NCBI GenBank assembly: GCA_963788655.1
Contig: CAWBHS010000090.1
Span: forward strand, 133,431 to 197,430
DNA length: 64,000 nucleotides
Reading direction: 5' to 3'
Source: an uncultured Verrucomicrobiae bacterium
Lineage (GTDB): Bacteria > Verrucomicrobiota > Verrucomicrobiia > Limisphaerales > JAFGQR01
The notes beneath the pieces are model-generated. The model was not told the DNA's origin. It searched no databases and saw only the letters and a program-made list of their open reading frames with translations. The position numbers were made by a program, and so were the translations under genes. Numbering within the stretch: the stretch's first letter is position 1; every line of letters starts with the position of its first letter. Shown one piece after another: positions 39,744 to 53,717 of the stretch.

Positions 39744-40656
39744 TCAAAGTTCTGCAAAAAAATCGATATCGACCGCTTTGATTTCGTACGATTGCTTAGT
39801 GGTCACGCCCACGCAATGCTCGATCATCAAATCCGCTAACGTGTCTGCGCCGATTAGAATTATTTTCGCGTCGATCGCTCCTACGTACTCGATCGCTTCT
39901 TTCGAAAAATTCGAAGTGGTGATGAAAACGCCTTTCCGCGCGCGTTTACCTTGTAATGCACCGGCGAATTTCTGGATCTCTGGGCGCCCCACGGTCGCGC
40001 CGTCTTTCCAACGTTTCGCCTGTACGTAGATGATATCCAGTCCAAGCCGATCTTCTTTGATGATACCGTCAATGCCTTCATCGCCGCCGCGCTGGAAAGC
40101 TTCCCCCGCCTCCTTTCGGGACCCGCCGTAACCCATTTTTACCAGCAAATCGATAACCAAACGCTCGAACGATTGCCACGATACGGCTCGCACTTGGTCC
40201 AACAATTCCGCGACTAGCTCGCGGCGTAAGCTGCGCATATGCCACATCGATCAACTCATCCGGCGTGGCAGAGGACTCTGTTGCGTCCTGCTCCCCCGCA
40301 TCGGACTGCTTTTTCGACGTGCGAAACTCCTGAAATTCCGGGAATTGATCCAAGTATTTATTGTCTATCCGCGATGGGTTACTTACCAATACTTGCTGTC
40401 CGCGCGCAGTAATGCGAAACACACCGCGGCGCACCGAATCGATCAGACCCGCTTTCTTCAAATAGGTGCGAGCCCATCCTACGCGGTTATCGAACATTGC
40501 TTGATTTCCACTAGGCAGCAGCTCCTCACGCTCATCGCCCGTTAATGAGAAAAAGTCGGCAAGCGAATCCCGTAATTGCGCGATCGGATGATCCGCGCCG
40601 TCTTCTAACTCGCGCAGGAGAGGCAGCATGATCGATTGGTAGTCTGGTATAGCCAT
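39744..40656 (-). CDS. mrr: Mrr type IV restriction endonuclease (frameshift near 40235)
   Basis: MAIPDYQSIMLPLL, NRVGWARTYLKKAG, GGDEGIDGII.EDRLGLD.IYVQAKRW. Confidence 0.93.
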
Positions 40657-40797
40657 GAATTCCCCCCGGGAGAACGATCTAATTCGTCTCAAGTCAGAAT
40701 TGAACGTGGTGACTCGCTACTTTTTGTTTATTAGCGTTATTCGTGGTTCGACTCTGATTTTCGTTATGGTGAACACTCGAAAACGGAAGAAAAACTC

Positions 40798-46155: not shown

Positions 46156-47736
46156 GTGACGACATCCTACCTCAATCAAGCGCTTCTTCGGTTGCAGAAG
46201 AGAGCTGAGGGCAGCGGCAGCGAAAAGCTCATTCGCACCTTCGTCGATGTCGGCCCCCTCTTCTCATTGTTGAGCAGCCAAGATCACCAAGTGGTCTTTG
46301 GGAGGCGCGGGACCGGCAAGACCCACGCATTCAGGTATCTTGCGGAAGACCGAAGGATGAATGGAGATGCGGTTGCGATTATAGACCTTCGCAATGTCGG
46401 CTCCAGCGCTGGGATTTACGCCGATGATACGATACCAGCCTCTGAGAGGGCAACGCGCCTGTTGGTCGATGTTCTGAGCGCCATTCACGATGCCCTTCTG
46501 GCCTTCTTCATTGAGAATGATGTCGAATTGAATCTATCGGTTGCAGGGCCGGCGCTGGACACCCTGGCAGATTCCATTACCCAGGTTCGGGTCGTAGGCT
46601 CTGTTGAAGCGGAGAAGTCCGCTGCAAGTGCCAGAGCAAGGGAAGAGAACCTTGGCTTTCAGGGTGATTTATCGACTCGCGGCCCTTCGATAGGGGCGCA
46701 GTTCAACTCCCACAGCAGTCGAAAGATTAGCCTGTCATCTATTGAGCGCCGCTCTGGGAAAGAGCAGCTATATGTAAATTTTGGCTCAACGGGGGCTGCT
46801 TTTAGAGGTATAGCCGAGAAGCTGAAGGGCCGGAGAATATGGGTGCTGCTTGATGAGTGGAGTAGTATTCCTCTCTCGTTGCAACCGTATCTGGCGGATC
46901 TGGTCCGTCGATCGCTCTTCCCAGTATCTGGCATCACTGTCAAGATCGCAGCAATTGAGCAGCGCTCCACTTTCCGGCTGTCTGGCGATGCGGGAAACTA
47001 TGTTGGCATTGAGCTTGGCGCTGATGCGGCAGCCGATATCAACCTAGATGATTTCATGGTGTTCGACAACAACGCTACAAGGGCAAAGGAGTTCTTTCAG
47101 AAGCTCATAGCGCGGCATATCAAGGCAGTCGTAAGCGGGACTGACCTTGAGTCAAAGGTGCCTACGAAGTCCTCAGAGATTATCGGCAACGCGTTCACGG
47201 AGAAACGTGCCGTTGAGGAGTTTGTCCGCGCTTGCGAGGGAGTACCCAGAGACGCGATCAACATTATTGCGCTGGCTGCACAGCGTGCGCTCGAAAGTCC
47301 GATCTCCGTCCAGCACATCAGGGTAGCTGCAGGGAATTGGTATCAACGCGATAAGGAGAGGAACGCTAGCGCAAGTGAAGAGGCGCTTCGGCTCCTTCAC
47401 TGGATCATTGACGAGGTGATTGGTGAAAGGCGCGCCCGTGCCTTCCTTCTCCAGAGAGGCATCAGTGCACCCCTGGTCGAGGATCTCTATGATTGTAGAG
47501 TATTGCACGTCTTGAAGCGAGGCATCTCAACTCATGACCAACCGGGAGTGCGATACGATGTCTACAAGCTGGACTATGGCTGCTATGTCGACCTAATTAG
47601 TACTGCTAAGGCGCCGCAAGGGCTCTTACCAACCGATGGCGAAGACGGCGTAGAGGGATATATTGATGTTCCTCCGGACGATTACCGGTCAATCCGCCGT
47701 GCTATTCTAGATTTGCGAAAGTTTTACGGGGAGTAG
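46156..47736 (+). CDS. P-loop ATPase, STAND/ORC-CDC6-like
   Basis: Walker A GRRGTGKT, Walker B VLLDEW, sensor GVPRD, C-terminal wHTH-like YKLDYGCY. Confidence 0.8.
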   Translation: MTTSYLNQALLRLQKRAEGSGSEKLIRTFVDVGPLFSLLSSQDHQVVFGRRGTGKTHAFRYLAEDRRMNGDAVAIIDLRNVGSSAGIYADDTIPASERATRLLVDVLSAIHDALLAFFIENDVELNLSVAGPALDTLADSITQVRVVGSVEAEKSAASARAREENLGFQGDLSTRGPSIGAQFNSHSSRKISLSSIERRSGKEQLYVNFGSTGAAFRGIAEKLKGRRIWVLLDEWSSIPLSLQPYLADLVRRSLFPVSGITVKIAAIEQRSTFRLSGDAGNYVGIELGADAAADINLDDFMVFDNNATRAKEFFQKLIARHIKAVVSGTDLESKVPTKSSEIIGNAFTEKRAVEEFVRACEGVPRDAINIIALAAQRALESPISVQHIRVAAGNWYQRDKERNASASEEALRLLHWIIDEVIGERRARAFLLQRGISAPLVEDLYDCRVLHVLKRGISTHDQPGVRYDVYKLDYGCYVDLISTAKAPQGLLPTDGEDGVEGYIDVPPDDYRSIRRAILDLRKFYGE

Positions 47737-48101: not shown

Positions 48102-49058
48102 TCACGTATGAATCCAGTATTCGATCCTCCTCGAGAGATTCTCGTCTCGCTGGTCGATTTGTAAGCTTTCTCTTAGCCAGCGAGCAAGGCCCGCCTCTTC
48201 CAACTCTCGCCAAGCTCTAGTCACGGCCGGAGGCTTCAACCGAACTCCCGACACGACGGCGACCTGTGTCTCCTTGCAGCCGTTCTCATGGAGGGCCAGG
48301 AGCCTACTGTGTCCTTCGATCAGAATGTAGCTTCCATCAAGAGATTCGACGACAGGAGGCACAAGGAGGCGGCCCGGACCGTTCCCGGTTGAAACCTTCG
48401 CAGGCACGAAGGGCGCTAGCCCTGCATTACGGAAGCACTCAAGTAGGGCGCGCGCCTGCGTCAGCTTATAGCTGCGCACAAATTTCTGGCTTACCATTAG
48501 CTCCTCTATCTCCACATCCGCAATGGACACTTGTGCAGTAGCGTAGAGCGGTACCCGCCGGAGGGCTGCTTCCAGATCAGGGGCCTGGACCTCCGACATC
48601 CTCAGTCTCGCCGGCTCGTTCCATCTCTTCCGAGTGAGGTGGCGACGCAGCAAATCATCCAATCGTTCCAGGGATGCTGCTTGTGATCCTTGGGAAGGTG
48701 CCGATGGGCGAGTAACGATCGCCTTTGCTGCTTCTGCCTCACCGATTGCGACTCTGTCGACCGCCACTGCGCACAAAAGCCCGGCGTCAATTCTTACTCC
48801 CACCGCCACAGAACAACCAAGTTGCTCAAGAATCCTACGTCGCTTCGAGTATCGCCACTCGTTACCCATGCCAGAGAAGTTGACGATGACCTCCACGCCA
48901 GTCAGTCTAGCCGCTATGACGGATGCAAGTGCGAAGAAGACCCAATCCCGAGTTGTGGAGAAGATCGCTACCTCGGATCGCGCCAAAGACATTGCTGTCA
49001 CGACTGCCTCCGACGCAGCCTCACGATCAGCAATTGCCGAATCAGGGTGATTCACCAC
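48102..49058 (-). CDS. Degenerate PLD-like N-domain plus ParB/Srx-like C-domain protein
   Basis: AAGGA RBS before GTG 49058; VSQ, PPVVE..GSYILIEGHSRL. Confidence 0.6.
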   Translation of the reverse strand: MVNHPDSAIADREAASEAVVTAMSLARSEVAIFSTTRDWVFFALASVIAARLTGVEVIVNFSGMGNEWRYSKRRRILEQLGCSVAVGVRIDAGLLCAVAVDRVAIGEAEAAKAIVTRPSAPSQGSQAASLERLDDLLRRHLTRKRWNEPARLRMSEVQAPDLEAALRRVPLYATAQVSIADVEIEELMVSQKFVRSYKLTQARALLECFRNAGLAPFVPAKVSTGNGPGRLLVPPVVESLDGSYILIEGHSRLLALHENGCKETQVAVVSGVRLKPPAVTRAWRELEEAGLARWLRESLQIDQRDENLSRRIEYWIHT

Positions 49059-49587
49059 AGAGATCGTCCTTGCGGCATTGGGGAGAAGCCAAAACGACGT
49101 GATCGATGAAAGACCGCTTCCCCTCAGTATAGGCGGATCGGTCGTGCGGATACTTCTTCGCAAGCCTCCTCTTCAGAAGAGCGTATTTCCGAGCTACTTC
49201 GGGATTGTCTCGAAGGTAGTCGCGGAAACGCACGCTGCGGAGCCATATGGCACCGCGGTGCTCAACTACATGAAGATGTACCAGCCGCCACTCTGGCGGC
49301 CCTTTGTGAAAGTACTCCAATCCTGGGAATCGCAGCGCCATCTCTGGGACACTCGAGTACCCTAGTTGTGTGAGTTTACGAGTCATCTCGGGCGCGAGCG
49401 GAAGCGCGGCGACGCCAAGCAGAATGTCAACGATAGGTTTCGCGACCATGCCCTCCACTGCAGTGCTTCCGAAATGTTCCACAGCAAGAGCGCCAGTGCC
49501 AAGGCACTCTCTGAGTAATCGCTCTTCGCGAGCAAATATGTCCTTCCATGACGCTTGGTACTCGGCAAGATGGACCTGTAAAGTCAT
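49042..49587 (-). CDS. GrpB-family nucleotidyltransferase-fold protein
   Basis: VEHFGSTAVEGMVAKPIVDI, HLHV, FRDYLR, YALLKRRLA, YTEGK. Confidence 0.9.
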   Translation of the reverse strand: MTLQVHLAEYQASWKDIFAREERLLRECLGTGALAVEHFGSTAVEGMVAKPIVDILLGVAALPLAPEMTRKLTQLGYSSVPEMALRFPGLEYFHKGPPEWRLVHLHVVEHRGAIWLRSVRFRDYLRDNPEVARKYALLKRRLAKKYPHDRSAYTEGKRSFIDHVVLASPQCRKDDLCGESP

Positions 49588-51074
49588 GGCTCAGTAGGCT
49601 TGCTGCGTTGTTCGCTGTCCAACTTCGAGGCGTCCTGCTGGGCTTCTCCGTGGCTCTTGATAAACTGGATTGGTGAGGAGGAAGCAGAAGTCAATCTGTC
49701 GTTCTCTATGACCTTGGGTGGGTCAGTCGTCGGGCTCGTCGAACTGGAAAGGTCGTGGGCAAAGAACCTCAGACCTGTCCAAGTCACTAAGAGCACAATC
49801 GAGCACACAAGAAGCTTCGAGGCAATACGCTCAGCATAGAGTTTAGAGTAGTTGGAGGCGCGGAGCTCGTAGAGTCGGAAATTCATGAGAGCGTCCGCAT
49901 TGTAGCTCCTGTACTTGTCGTAGAAGAACGCTTGGTGTTGATGCGCTTGAAGAGCCTGAGAAGATTCCCGAAGCCGTCGATACTGGTCAATTGGATCGCC
50001 AGGCAGTGCGACTGACTTCCCGAAAAGGATCCCTATCAGCTGCTTCATCTTAGATCGGATGCGCTGCCCCGAGTTGTTTCCACTTGTTTGCCGTGCGGTA
50101 TAGGTCATAATGGAGTACAACAAGGAAAAGACAGCGGATAGGAATGCCAGAGACAAGATCACGTCACTTGCTCGACTAAGAGCGTGAAAGGACGACATCG
50201 AAGAGTCAGGGTCTATAAGGAGCTTGCCGGAAACTGCTGTCAGTACGCCGGCGAGCGCAACACTCGTTGACGCCTTTCTGTCAATGTCGCTGAGCCAATC
50301 GGAATATTGACCGATAAACATGTCCCTTAGTGATCGCATCTGCGCCGTGCCGGCCGCAAGGCCCTGGACAATGCCGGGCACCTCCGCCCAAGAAGTCGCA
50401 ATAGTTAAGCCGATCTCATCCTTGATTTGAAGTTCCAGAATTTCGGAAGTTCGCAGGGTGGACGTCAACAGTATTGCGGGAATGCCATTTAGATGAGCAG
50501 CGCGGACATCTTCTCCACGGTCTCCCACGTAAGCAGCAACGCGGTAGTTGCCATCGAGGGAACGTACTATGGACGTCTTCAAGGCCAGGGGACTGGTAGA
50601 GTCGGGATCCGTATTCATGAGCAGATCGCAATCGCCTATCTCAAGACCCGCTCGCTTCAGCTCCCTCAAAGTCGCAGCGCGGAGGCTTTCTGGGCGTGCA
50701 GTTACTATAACGATCCGATACATGGCAGAGCGCAAGCGGTCCACTGCCTCACGACTGCCCTCGAAAAGGGGAGCGGGGTACTTTTGGATTGCATCTCTCG
50801 AATCGAGATGAGCAAAGAAACTGCGAGAGGCATCATGTGTACGGTCGCCTAGGACAGAAGTTAGCCAGTAATCGTCACGGATGGCGGGCATACCGATGCC
50901 TGTGGATCTCTCAGGGAACATCTCGCGCAGGAGTGGAAGCTTTCTTATTGTTGTGTCAAGGAGAGTGTTGTCTAGGTCGAGTACAAGGCAGGCCTGTTGG
51001 ACTGGGCTGGAACTTCCCCCCTCTGGCTGAAAGGCAGTGGGCAGTGGGAGAGGCGTTGACTTTGTCCGCTTCAT
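49584..51074 (-). CDS. HAD phosphatase fused to a Pycsar-effector-like 3-TM domain
   Basis: GGAGG RBS; DLDNTL, VTAR, K, VGDRGED; then WLSDIDRKA-TM1, TM2, NYSKL-TM3. Confidence 0.72.
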   Translation of the reverse strand: MKRTKSTPLPLPTAFQPEGGSSSPVQQACLVLDLDNTLLDTTIRKLPLLREMFPERSTGIGMPAIRDDYWLTSVLGDRTHDASRSFFAHLDSRDAIQKYPAPLFEGSREAVDRLRSAMYRIVIVTARPESLRAATLRELKRAGLEIGDCDLLMNTDPDSTSPLALKTSIVRSLDGNYRVAAYVGDRGEDVRAAHLNGIPAILLTSTLRTSEILELQIKDEIGLTIATSWAEVPGIVQGLAAGTAQMRSLRDMFIGQYSDWLSDIDRKASTSVALAGVLTAVSGKLLIDPDSSMSSFHALSRASDVILSLAFLSAVFSLLYSIMTYTARQTSGNNSGQRIRSKMKQLIGILFGKSVALPGDPIDQYRRLRESSQALQAHQHQAFFYDKYRSYNADALMNFRLYELRASNYSKLYAERIASKLLVCSIVLLVTWTGLRFFAHDLSSSTSPTTDPPKVIENDRLTSASSSPIQFIKSHGEAQQDASKLDSEQRSKPTEP

Positions 51075-51126: not shown

Positions 51127-52038
51127 CTATTTTGAGCATTTAGGAAGAATAGCTTCAACGGGTACTATGGCTTCAGTCTTGTATCGCTGGGCCCAGACCA
51201 AGTCCAAGGCCTCTGCGGCGGGCAAGGCGCCGTCTCTGCCAGGGAAGAAGAGCGTGTCGTCAAAGAGGTTTCCCATTACAAATGGAGGAGCGCGATGTCG
51301 CGGCAGAACTAGGTGGTCTTCCTCGTTTAGAACACAGAAGAAGTCGGAGTACGAGAAATCGTGAATCTTCACTCCGTTTGGAAAACCAGAGGCTAGGCTA
51401 GACAGGCGGCGGGAAAGAGCGGAAAGACCTCGACCTCTCAGAGATCCAGAGAAGTTGTCTCCTGGGTCGAGCACCGCATCGAGTTGGTTCACTCCAGTCG
51501 GGATGTAGCGCAGTATGAGTACCTGAGAGACCCCGGCTGCCGAGGCGTCAGAGAGGAATCGCTCCACGGCTAACTCTGATTGCTTTGTGAGCATATAGTT
51601 TGCTCCTACCTGGATGCCCTGTTGGATGAGGCGCCTCGTGACCCCTAGGAGCAGGCGGTAGTGGCGCCTTCCCATGGTCCGGTCGTGGAGGGCGCAATCG
51701 CCGTAGAAACTTAGCTTTAGATACTCTAGCCGGTTAAGAAACTTGGGAACTCGCCTCACAAGGGAGTCACCGTTGGTTGTGAGGAGCTGACGAATGCCTG
51801 TTCTGTGCCCTAGCTCAAGTGCCTCCGGGAACTGCGGGTGGCCCAACGCTTCGCCGCCGCTGTAGGAGAGCTTCTCGACGCCCACGCTCGCGAGACGGGC
51901 GAAGTAACTCTGAAGATCTCTCCGAGAGTGTGAGTGATCTGGGCCGCTTCGGGAGAGGCAGAAAGGGCAGGAGCGGTTGCACCAACGAGTGAACCTCCAA
52001 CACACGATCTTGTGAGATGAGATGTGCCTCTTAGACAA
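51127..52038 (-). CDS. Radical SAM enzyme (viperin-like N-terminus)
   Basis: CxxxCxxC CNRSCPFC, SGGE, TTNG. Confidence 0.88.
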   Translation of the reverse strand: MSKRHISSHKIVCWRFTRWCNRSCPFCLSRSGPDHSHSRRDLQSYFARLASVGVEKLSYSGGEALGHPQFPEALELGHRTGIRQLLTTNGDSLVRRVPKFLNRLEYLKLSFYGDCALHDRTMGRRHYRLLLGVTRRLIQQGIQVGANYMLTKQSELAVERFLSDASAAGVSQVLILRYIPTGVNQLDAVLDPGDNFSGSLRGRGLSALSRRLSSLASGFPNGVKIHDFSYSDFFCVLNEEDHLVLPRHRAPPFVMGNLFDDTLFFPGRDGALPAAEALDLVWAQRYKTEAIVPVEAILPKCSK

Positions 52039-53050
52039 CCAGTGCCCCTCTCTCTAGCGCCAGCTTCGCGAAGGTAAGAGAGGTCCCCTGATAGCCAGTG
52101 GCCGCCTGAAACCGGAAGGTCGTGCCGTGAGCCTCTTCGAGTCCTCCAAGTTCCCACTGAATCGAAGGGAACTCGACCTCTCCATAATCTTCGAACCTCA
52201 GGCGTATACGTCTCGGCATGTAGAAGCTGTGGCCACCAGTAGGCATGGGTGTGCACGGCGCACCTACGAGTAGACGGGCGACGGACTCGCTGAGATGGGT
52301 AGTCTGGGGGAAGGCATGTCGCTGAGGATATGTATCGCCTTCGCAGGCGAAGAAGACCCCGATCTCGAGGCTGCCAGATTTGAGATATGGGGTTCCCTTC
52401 AGGAAGATGGAGGTCAGTGTCTCCCTGTTTAGGGCTCCGCTCTTGGAAGAATATCGCCTTGCGCGTAATCTGATCTCCTTTGGAGAGAAGCGCCTGACTG
52501 AAGCGCGCAGGACCTGCTGAGTGTTGACGATGAGAGCCATTGGAGAGTATTGGGAGTTGGTTGTATCAACCAGCACATCCCAGTCAGATGAGGCAATTTC
52601 ACGATGCACTCTGCGAGAGCCATACAGGAAGACTCGCGCTCCCATGGACTCAACCACCTCAGCTAGGCGCATCACGATCGCTGGAGCTGTTGAGAGATCA
52701 GCAATAGGCACCTCCGCACGGGGGTGGATGGCTCGAATCGAAGAAGTACTTAGGGCTGCTAGATTGAAAAAGGAATGAGTTTGAGTGGCCCTATGTCTGC
52801 GCCCGAGATGAGAGATGGGCTGGTTTGCCTCAAGTTTACGGATCTGTAGACAGGAGGGAGGGTAGATAGGTTTTGCCAAGACCTGGTTGTGATTGGATGG
52901 CACGACAGCCCTCACCACATAGATCCAGCCATCCTGATCCTCGACATAGTCGAAAGCACGGAGCCTAGGAGCTCGGCTCTTAAGAAGTGGGTCGCCGAAG
53001 GATTGATCTTGTTCAAGGGTGCCGTCGCCGCAGGAGGAGGAATCGGCCAT
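52031..53050 (-). CDS. Pol-beta superfamily nucleotidyltransferase (COG1665-like)
   Basis: FLYGS...SSDWDVLV motif; N-terminal RLRAFDYVEDQDGWIYVV. Confidence 0.65.
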   Translation of the reverse strand: MADSSSCGDGTLEQDQSFGDPLLKSRAPRLRAFDYVEDQDGWIYVVRAVVPSNHNQVLAKPIYPPSCLQIRKLEANQPISHLGRRHRATQTHSFFNLAALSTSSIRAIHPRAEVPIADLSTAPAIVMRLAEVVESMGARVFLYGSRRVHREIASSDWDVLVDTTNSQYSPMALIVNTQQVLRASVRRFSPKEIRLRARRYSSKSGALNRETLTSIFLKGTPYLKSGSLEIGVFFACEGDTYPQRHAFPQTTHLSESVARLLVGAPCTPMPTGGHSFYMPRRIRLRFEDYGEVEFPSIQWELGGLEEAHGTTFRFQAATGYQGTSLTFAKLALERGALVV

Positions 53051-53108: not shown

Positions 53109-53717
53109 CTAGTTGACGTTGTTGGAAGGATCTGTCGGTTGATCCACGAGTGCAGCAAGCAACTGGCGCGCCCAGTTGTCTCGCTCAGTGGTAGTTGTCC
53201 ATCGGAGCAGAGTTGGACCTGCGCTGCCCCCTCCAAGCTTGATGTAGCTGAATGGTTTATTGAGATCGAGAGGACTGCAGGCGTCCCAAGTTCTGGCAAT
53301 GCTGACAAATCGGTCGACGCTATCTAGGGCAAGAGAGCGCCCGGTCTCGGTCGCTCGACTCGCGATTCTGGACTTACATATAAGTGCAGGGGTAACCATT
53401 TCGATTATGACCAGGCCATGGACGAGGTCCTTGAGGTGCCGCCAAGTCGCCCACCGGAACGCCCTTAGCGAAAACGTGGCATCCAACAAGGGGACGAGGT
53501 CCGAAGCTAAGAAGTCTCGCGCCTGGACCCCAAGGTAGTCATACGCCGCCAAAGTGGCCTCCGGTTGGCCCACTGGCAGGTCTTGCTGAGCACGGATCAG
53601 GTCGGTCCCGCAATATGCCAGAGATGGAAAACAGCGGACAAGGAATTGGGCCGTAGTTGTCTTGCCAGAGGCAGGCAGGCCGCAGACCACCACCACCGTG
53701 TGCTCGGATTCTGCCAT
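53109..53717 (-). CDS. P-loop kinase (AAA_33 / polynucleotide kinase-like)
   Basis: GAGGAG RBS; GLPASGKTT, TDLIR, LDATF, lid CKSRIASR. Confidence 0.82.
   Translation of the reverse strand: MAESEHTVVVVCGLPASGKTTTAQFLVRCFPSLAYCGTDLIRAQQDLPVGQPEATLAAYDYLGVQARDFLASDLVPLLDATFSLRAFRWATWRHLKDLVHGLVIIEMVTPALICKSRIASRATETGRSLALDSVDRFVSIARTWDACSPLDLNKPFSYIKLGGGSAGPTLLRWTTTTERDNWARQLLAALVDQPTDPSNNVN

Follow-up and report, generated by a model that had tools for sequence, protein, structure and literature searches.

A HAD phosphatase fused to a PycTM-like membrane module beside a radical SAM enzyme: candidate effector of an undescribed, possibly anti-phage system

We analysed a 64,000-nucleotide stretch of contig CAWBHS010000090.1 from an uncultured Verrucomicrobiae bacterium (this whole stretch is called the window below) and, within it, a gene whose product joins an N-terminal HAD phosphatase to a PycTM-like module of three transmembrane (TM) segments, here named HAD-3TM. 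It stands fourth in a run of six co-directional genes, directly after a gene for a radical SAM enzyme. The gene and the parts of its product lie at the following window coordinates, with residue numbers referring to the protein.

49584..51074, minus strand: HAD-3TM gene (P0001), 496 amino acids (aa), N-terminal HAD phosphatase and C-terminal PycTM-like 3TM module (open reading frame, motifs, Pfam, PADLOC, AlphaFold2)
50397..50993, minus strand: HAD phosphatase domain, residues about 28-226, with D33/D35, T125, K166 and D185/D189 (Pfam, AlphaFold2, Foldseek, PDB profile search)
49740..50354, minus strand: PycTM-like 3TM module, residues 241-445, comprising a cytosolic helix with D265-x-K267, TM1, TM2, a basic stretch, a helical cytosolic insert of about 95 aa, and TM3 (PADLOC, hydropathy, hhalign)
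50214..50270, minus strand: TM1, residues 269-287 (hydropathy scan; AlphaFold2 helix)
50106..50162, minus strand: TM2, residues 305-323 (hydropathy scan; AlphaFold2 helix)
49758..49814, minus strand: TM3, residues 421-439 (hydropathy scan; AlphaFold2 helix)
49587..49739, minus strand: Ser/Thr/Pro-rich variable C-terminal tail, residues 446-496, predicted extracytoplasmic (low model confidence, unconserved in the alignment, charge-based topology)

Read on the minus strand, 49584-51074 gave a stop-free translation of 496 aa whose ATG, at 51074, is preceded 7 nt upstream by the ribosome-binding sequence GGAGG; a longer alternative start, TTG at 51158, is not needed, and at the other end the stop codon and the ATG of the following GrpB-family gene overlap as ATGA. 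An earlier note on this DNA, written from the sequence, had described a HAD phosphatase fused to a PycTM-like membrane effector, and every motif it quoted was located: DLDNT (33-37), VTARP (124-128), K166 and GDRGED (184-189) in the HAD part, QYSDWLSDIDRKAS at 256-269 directly ahead of one hydrophobic segment, TYTAR after a second, and ELRASNYSKL (403-412) preceding a third. A Kyte-Doolittle scan revealed exactly three hydrophobic segments (269-287, 305-323 and 421-439). AlphaFold2, run with a 36-row alignment, gave a model with a mean predicted local distance difference test score (pLDDT) of 83.3, a predicted template-modelling score (pTM) of 0.72 and a HAD part above 90 in pLDDT; for the whole protein, a single-sequence run had given a pLDDT of 35. 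The model placed helices at 229-287, 297-326 and 393-444 and short helices at 343-388 within the stretch of about 95 aa between TM2 and TM3, and left the low-complexity 51-aa tail after TM3 disordered. The TM2-TM3 segment holds 16 lysines and arginines against 7 aspartates and glutamates, and the TM1-TM2 loop 1 against 3; because of this charge distribution and the lack of a signal peptide, we infer that the HAD domain and the TM2-TM3 insert lie in the cytoplasm. Prediction of a four-copy complex of the module scored 0.28 against a mark of 0.42 and was neutral on oligomerisation.

Evaluating the N-terminal part against Pfam, we found PF00702 (E 6.3e-9, 36.9 bits against a cut-off of 26.4) and PF03767, the subfamily IIIB acid phosphatases (E 1.3e-8, 35.1 bits against a cut-off of 27), and the catalytic set D33, D35, T125, K166, D185 and D189 was present in full, making up the four HAD motifs. 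The corresponding D-D-T/S-K-D-D/E set was complete in 33 of 36 aligned full-length relatives, the other three being two N-terminally truncated sequences and one degenerate one. Searching the PDB with the whole AlphaFold2 model (Foldseek) returned 172 matches at E<=0.001, all of them HAD proteins among the matches listed, and the HAD family profile best matched class C/B acid phosphatases and e(P4) (2i33, 3pct, 3ocy) and also plant VSP, with Pnkp1 a weaker solved relative (E 1.9e-4). The HAD_PNKP model matched weakly both in HAD-3TM (E 0.015) and in several relatives, and NT5C (Pfam) was matched in four relatives. Taken together, these searches show a HAD domain that, judged by its residues, is intact and of the class B/C acid-phosphatase, nucleotidase-like type, and that is predicted to be cytoplasmic. 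Its four motifs are common to class B/C acid phosphatases (AphA, e(P4)) and PNKP-type HAD enzymes (HAD subfamily III), where its best Pfam and PDB matches lie; enzymes of the AphA/e(P4) class are secreted or lipoprotein nucleotidases, whereas HAD-3TM has no signal peptide and carries its phosphatase fused to the 3TM module.

For the membrane module, the profile search that the earlier note had proposed gave a divided answer: the PADLOC PycTM models matched HAD-3TM (E 2.4e-4) and profile alignment agreed with them, whereas the Pfam PycTM model PF18967 did not match. Across the family, the PADLOC PycTM models matched, at E<=0.01, 29 of the 36 relatives of full length (lowest E 1.4e-7) and, at E<=1, six of eight module-only relatives, the sole other PADLOC families matched being '2TM effector' models (in three members and in one member). 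We compared the module alignment by hhalign with 13 genuine PycTM proteins of 158-183 aa, taken above the Pfam cut-off (gathering threshold 27.2 bits) from genomes of the same phylum, and obtained a probability of 92.6%, E 4.6e-7 and a score of 50.7 over 108 columns. The score fell to 20.0 and 19.0 when one or the other alignment was reversed and stayed at or under 23.7 when the PycTM alignment was block-shuffled 30 times, with all 32 controls at a probability of at most 4.5%; because these controls score so far lower, the PycTM signal is more than hydrophobic composition. With a deeper profile of 36 rows, the probability was 86.3% over 77 columns. In an ESM Atlas feature search, the PycTM cluster ranked first (score 0.91, 205 shared features), which we treat as a lead only. 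Searches of PDB sequences with the module (A1) and PycTM (A2) profiles returned no solved relative, and no transporter family in Pfam matched the C-terminal part, so that PycTM profiles were found in place of the ordinary transporter or anchor that the note had named as the outcome against it.

Within the alignment, D265-x-K267 falls on the PycTM A-D-x-K/R motif, in which A and D are nearly invariant across the 13 proteins, and among the 36 family members D265 is retained in 34, as is K267. About 20 positions of the module are invariant or nearly so in the 36-row alignment, with H380, N398, R400, N408-Y409, K411, Y413 and E415 forming invariant motifs in the insert. The overall layout is of PycTM type (three TM segments, a cytosolic N-helix, and a helical TM2-TM3 segment placed inside by charge counts), and the fusion architecture claimed by the earlier note is thus borne out by the Pfam HAD matches together with PADLOC and hhalign. 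On our reading of the sequences, the module is probably a distant PycTM-like branch that belongs to the same 3TM superfamily and lies outside PF18967, its insert having been lengthened and remodelled. With the PycTM and PucTM effectors (PADLOC PDLC02363-5) it shares the three TM segments, the N-helix D-x-K before TM1, the basic stretch after TM2, the helical insert before TM3 and a location in a defence-type island; it differs in scoring below the Pfam threshold, in its longer insert with invariant motifs of its own, in the enzyme fused to its N-terminus where the 13 collected PycTM proteins stand alone, and in having a radical SAM enzyme, not the class III cyclase of Pycsar, as its partner. 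PycTM and PucTM are described in a 2026 preprint as 'pJV1-spdB3 family 3TM' effectors, and EcPucTM is presented there as hexameric, its channel of about 15 Å being lined by TM2, with an abortive-infection phenotype.

The fusion is rare. Searching 1.84 billion representative proteins by HMMER with the C-terminal 256 aa, we found 77 proteins at E<=0.001 (query included), 57 at E<=1e-10 and 25 at E<=1e-30, and a Pfam scan of 62 of the 76 non-query matches, leaving out 14 partial-module fragments of 57-342 aa, placed a HAD-type match N-terminal of the module in 48 of the 62; among full-length family members the HAD fusion is nearly universal. One relative (P0029) is a GrpB-HAD-3TM triple fusion in a single protein. 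Five others (P0020, P0027, P0038, P0044 and P0022) have a methionine right at the start of the module, which may therefore stand alone in them. Distant module relatives (P0055, of 745 aa, P0059, P0064, P0073 and P0076; E 1e-12 to 8e-4) have added or altered N-terminal regions that match nothing in Pfam and may be alternative fusions of the 3TM module, and one further match, the cadherin-repeat protein P0075, is clearly spurious. The module profile matched in one of 401 genomes of the window's phylum, namely its own, and two pattern scans of a 185,579-species collection returned four other HAD-3TM loci (L017, L018, L026 and L028), scattered across unrelated phyla. A word-indexed search with the whole protein returned HAD-3TM itself and nothing else, and scans of metagenomes and viruses found no HAD-3TM relative. 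Source records name the relatives only as 'phosphoglycolate phosphatase-like HAD superfamily hydrolase'. These counts and alignments show that the HAD-3TM fusion, as a set of sequences, is a rare but real and conserved family.

We then consider its neighbours in the window, where the remaining five genes of the operon are as follows.

53109..53717, minus strand: P-loop kinase (AAA_33), first gene of the operon (Pfam PF13671, E 2.2e-10)
52031..53050, minus strand: 339-aa protein, probably a divergent pol-beta-fold nucleotidyltransferase, with a YGSR...DWD motif (weak, repeated nucleotidyltransferase signals)
51127..52038, minus strand: radical SAM enzyme of 303 aa with CxxxCxxC and no SPASM cysteines, the conserved partner (Pfam PF04055, E 2.4e-10)
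49042..49587, minus strand: GrpB-family protein with a nucleotidyltransferase fold (Pfam PF04229, E 3.5e-44)
48102..49163, minus strand: last co-directional open reading frame, with weak matches to an inactive-HKD family (PF24402, E 1.5e-4) and a ParB-like nuclease (PF08857, E 0.015) (Pfam)

A divergent MerR-type gene lies upstream of the operon and a terminator-like site (47778-47761) lies past its end; whether the 48102-49163 reading frame belongs to the system is uncertain. GrpB is tied to HAD-3TM twice, by the triple fusion and by the overlapping codons in the window. The gene for the 339-aa protein overlaps the start codon of the radical SAM gene. Its product is probably nucleotidyltransferase-like, judging from weak signals that recur across searches: NCBIfam MntA (E 0.09), Pfam NTP_transf_2/Polbeta in five of six homologues (E 0.004-0.2), the Tailor uridylyltransferase and MNT in the PDB (E 0.04), and, in the ESM Atlas (score 0.91), archaeal clusters that have NTP_transf_2 in 10-28% of their members. 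The kinase also has weak matches to bacter_Pnkp (NCBIfam, E 0.054) and KTI12 (Pfam).

Across the five HAD-3TM loci, a radical SAM gene stands in the same gene string as HAD-3TM every time, in these orders.

Window: kinase, 339-aa protein, radical SAM, HAD-3TM, GrpB
L026: 339-aa type, radical SAM, HAD-3TM
L017: Mrr, HAD-3TM, 328-aa protein, radical SAM
L028: HAD-3TM, 328-aa type (a 312-aa protein), radical SAM
L018: radical SAM, HAD-3TM, truncated pyruvate kinase

The third gene tracks the radical SAM subtype: the window and L026 share the 339-aa type, L017 and L028 share the 328-aa type, and L018 has the truncated pyruvate kinase. The radical SAM identities run in parallel (window-L026 32%, L017-L028 33%, about 25% between these groups, and 19-25% for the outlier L018). 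The 339-aa and 328-aa types showed no similarity by hhalign, which leaves a shared G-S...DxD motif in the 328-aa type unsupported, and BLASTP with the 339-aa protein did not match the third genes of L017 or L018. The window kinase had no tblastn match in the other loci and is confined to the window's own. Of L026 we note that it is a 3634-bp contig with a Planctomycetaceae metagenome-assembled genome label and 26% guanine plus cytosine (GC), holding the three-gene cassette only, and it may be a mis-binned or mobile fragment. The HAD-3TM homologue at L017:7995-9320 is 37% identical and otherwise collinear and has one in-frame stop, at codon 334 in the cytosolic insert, which could mark a pseudogene or an assembly error.

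The earlier note had seen no PycC cyclase nearby and had reasoned that any activator would have to come from the neighbouring enzymes. The first point held, with five class III cyclase genes (PF00211) in the genome and none on the 197-kb contig, and likewise none among the Pfam-scanned neighbours of the window, L017, L018 and L028; the second fits the adjacency of a radical SAM gene in all five loci. In the window radical SAM enzyme, the best PADLOC match was pVip (E 1.5e-14, 52 bits, residues 11-152 of 303), and NCBIfam viperin_w_prok reached 40.3 bits against a cut-off of 180 over residues 11-126 only. The best solved relatives of the window subtype were SkfB, CteB, BlsE and PqqE, followed by viperins (E 5.5e-9). 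By the family test, a viperin identity is rejected for this enzyme, the match being to the generic core, far under the cut-off and outscored by SkfB, CteB and BlsE.

Close relatives of the window radical SAM enzyme (40-44% identity) occurred at six actinomycete loci, five of which had a gene of the 339-aa type directly upstream of it; HAD-3TM was found in none of those five. A TadA-like zinc deaminase and a 275-aa protein were in the operon at all four of the actinomycete loci scanned with Pfam. Since HAD-3TM accompanies the 339-aa/radical SAM pair in the window and L026 and the deaminase accompanies it in actinomycetes, the same pair occurs with two different accessory modules. In the L021-L025 loci (e.g., L024:4807-7873), the 275-aa protein (weak GAF), the TadA-like deaminase (159 aa), a nucleotidyltransferase-like protein of about 290 aa and the radical SAM enzyme are encoded by overlapping or abutting genes, and this actinomycete operon may be a sister system.

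The surroundings of the cassette are rich in restriction-type genes. In the window the operon has about 55% GC against 65-70% in its flanks, and its surroundings hold Mrr, an HsdR-like gene, Fic, a MarR-nucleotidyltransferase, an ORC/Cdc6-like ATPase, a ParE toxin and DUF4143. Restriction-type neighbours were present at three of the four HAD-3TM loci with enough flank (the window, L017 and L028, with none at L018; the 3.6-kb contig L026 was excluded from this count), with Mrr directly upstream of the L017 cassette. At L028:6468-12287 the cassette sits between a 131-aa reading frame (weak HsdR N-terminal, EcoEI_R_C) and a 575-aa HsdR-like helicase reading frame, and it looks as if a type I restriction R gene, or the DNA next to it, had been the site of insertion. 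On a wider scale, window positions 24000-54000 form a block of about 30 kb at 55-58% GC against 65-72% beyond 54 kb, containing Fic/DOC-HTH, MarR-nucleotidyltransferase, DUF4268, DUF5655, Mrr and an HsdR-like fragment, with DUF4143, the ParE toxin and helix-turn-helix (HTH) genes just outside it at 54-56 kb; this block looks like an acquired defence/toxin-antitoxin island. Mrr appears split there over two overlapping reading frames in different frames (39744-40692, minus strand; Mrr_N at 40078-40692 and Mrr_cat at 39744-40247) and is probably a frameshifted gene. An ORC/Cdc6-like P-loop ATPase of the Sll1717 family (46156-47736, plus strand; weak PADLOC mad8) converges on the 48102-49163 reading frame, and these two may form a separate defence pair.

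To place HAD-3TM among known systems, we compared it with described defence proteins, and the architecture it comes closest to, judged from descriptions, is that of Chp1 (HAD, membrane pore, CARF). Chp1 is described as a HAD-4TM-CARF protein forming a tetrameric pore that is opened by cyclic tetra-adenylate (cA4) and depolarises the membrane, its toxicity coming from the pore and not from HAD catalysis (PMC12715507; bioRxiv 10.64898/2026.08.05.743128); its HAD is reported as constitutively active on nucleotides, with catalytic residues dispensable for toxicity, and is proposed to be a structural lever (bioRxiv 10.64898/2026.08.05.743128). The likeness, drawn from description and not from sequence, lies in an N-terminal cytoplasmic HAD directly before the membrane domain and in a defence context. 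The differences are that HAD-3TM has three TM segments of PycTM type, no CARF domain in Pfam or PADLOC scans, and a 51-aa low-complexity tail. No Chp chain was among the PDB matches of the HAD family profile. No Cas protein was seen among the neighbours scanned, with no search aimed at cas genes or CRISPR arrays. Besides Chp, HAD domains are reported in defence from PUA-Cal-HAD/Metis and DS-9. On the radical SAM side, Ophion is characterised as radical SAM plus PHP phosphoesterase plus phosphoribosyltransferase, a validated defence that is reported not to act by abortive infection (bioRxiv 10.1101/2025.09.30.679545). The window operon resembles viperin and Ophion systems in being small and in combining a radical SAM enzyme, a phosphoesterase and a nucleotide-handling enzyme, and its radical SAM protein is, like viperins, about 300 aa long without SPASM cysteines, some viperins also occurring with kinases. 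It departs from Ophion in that its phosphoesterase is a membrane-fused HAD and not PHP, and in having no phosphoribosyltransferase, and from viperins in that its radical SAM enzyme stays under the cut-off (40.3 against 180 bits). The literature searched gave no description of a HAD-3TM fusion or of its operon, although an older comparative-genomics paper may mention it, and the combination of a PycTM-like 3TM module, a HAD and a radical SAM partner appears to be undescribed.

We consider the best explanation to be that HAD-3TM serves as membrane effector in a so far undescribed conflict system, nucleotide-based and centred on the radical SAM enzyme, whose target is most likely phage; we hold this reading tentatively and place it just short of probable. 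Under it, the radical SAM enzyme would act together with a partner of nucleotidyltransferase-like or kinase-like type to make or modify a phosphorylated, nucleotide-derived molecule during infection; the molecule would reach the 3TM module from its cytosolic side and cause it to oligomerise into a pore and depolarise the cell, by analogy with PycTM/PucTM and Chp1; and the HAD would either hydrolyse the molecule, as a threshold or off-switch, or serve as a structural lever, as proposed for Chp1. That a ligand gates the module and that the HAD senses or degrades the signal, as the earlier note supposed, is for now pure conjecture. Several observations weigh against this explanation. On the membrane side, PF18967 had no match in the C-terminal 256 aa even at E<=10, HAD-3TM was not among the PF18967 matches of its own genome, and 11 of the 401 genomes searched contain genuine PycTM proteins, none of which the family profile recovered. 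The confident PycTM alignment is limited to the first 80-108 columns or so (N-helix, TM1, TM2 and the basic stretch after TM2), the remainder being collinear only under relaxed hhalign settings, and the TM2-TM3 insert, a possible ligand-site region, is longer than that of PycTM and has its own motifs. On the side of gene context, the evidence covers five loci against at least 57 family representatives, none of the six radical SAM proteins scanned, that of the window included, reached any NCBIfam cut-off, and the neighbours scanned included no cyclase, CD-NTase, TIR or Cas10. The neighbours at L018 (a sigma factor, a methyltransferase and an ABC-2 transporter) are not defence-like, and kinase, phosphatase, nucleotidyltransferase and radical SAM genes also fit a small biosynthetic cassette.

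Such a cassette is the core of the strongest rival, possible though on the unlikely side, in which a viperin-style chemical defence or small nucleoside-analogue pathway has kinases supply nucleoside triphosphates (NTPs), the radical SAM enzyme make the analogue and the membrane HAD dephosphorylate it last, the 3TM module being an anchor or exit channel, or else the HAD detoxifying the product. The P-loop kinase in the window and the truncated pyruvate kinase in L018, an enzyme of the type that converts nucleoside diphosphates to NTPs, would suit this and recall kinase-associated viperins, as would a radical SAM enzyme of about 300 aa without SPASM whose best PADLOC match is pVip and whose solved relatives include viperins, a nucleotidase-like HAD (PF03767, e(P4), NT5C) with catalytic residues kept in 33 of 36 relatives, actinomycete relatives that accompany a deaminase, and Ophion, a precedent of similar logic. 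The viperin similarity, however, is that of a generic radical SAM core, for which SkfB, CteB and BlsE score higher; a plain anchor needs no conserved 200-aa module with a nearly invariant PycTM-like part and cytosolic motifs, no transporter family matches that module, and the small size of the cassette, its patchy distribution and its place in restriction-rich islands also argue against this rival. We regard it as weakened because the membrane module is strongly conserved and PycTM-like. A second rival, which strikes us as improbable, makes HAD-3TM a routine phosphatase, tethered to the membrane and serving metabolism or cofactor synthesis next to a radical SAM step, with no link to conflict and with a PycTM resemblance that goes back only to a shared ancient 3TM scaffold. 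In its favour, metabolism abounds in HAD phosphatases and radical SAM enzymes, the L018 neighbours are not defence genes, the Pfam PycTM model fails to match and the relatives bear only a phosphoglycolate phosphatase-like name; against this stand the rarity of the fusion (one of 401 same-phylum genomes and four other loci in 185,579 species), its scatter across unrelated phyla, GC atypical for the host, restriction-type neighbours at three of four informative loci and partner genes swapped between loci. A membrane-tethered, PNKP-like set for healing nucleic-acid ends (P-loop polynucleotide kinase, HAD 3'-phosphatase and nucleotidyltransferase) we hold to be very improbable: it would account for the weak HAD_PNKP matches (E 0.015, with several relatives), the solved relative Pnkp1 (E 1.9e-4), the weak bacter_Pnkp (E 0.054) and KTI12 matches of the kinase and the adjacent nucleotidyltransferase-like genes, but the kinase is present at one locus of five, acid-phosphatase-type models always outscore PNKP models, no ligase family was detected, and both the universal radical SAM partner and the 3TM module are left unexplained.

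Returning to HAD-3TM as the membrane effector of a conflict system, a more specific form of it, which we think rather unlikely as stated, is that the radical SAM enzyme and the nucleotidyltransferase-like partner make a radical-modified, phosphorylated nucleotide second messenger that opens a PycTM-type pore, with the fused HAD as a built-in off-switch and the same enzyme pair driving a deaminase effector in actinomycetes. Should that be true, bacterial immunity would have its first signalling pathway that depends on a radical SAM enzyme. To our knowledge, the only role described for PycTM-type pores is to receive cyclic mononucleotides made by cyclases, and what we describe here is a distant PycTM branch that is fused to a catalytically intact phosphatase and genetically tied to a radical SAM enzyme instead of a cyclase. 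The apparent swap of HAD-3TM for a deaminase around the same enzyme pair is the kind of modular pattern that has marked earlier real defence systems. If this is a defence system, it would widen the range of signals and chemistries that drive this pore family, it would provide a second, independent pairing of a HAD with a membrane pore after Chp1, and its compact three-gene cassette would let the role of the HAD be tested directly.

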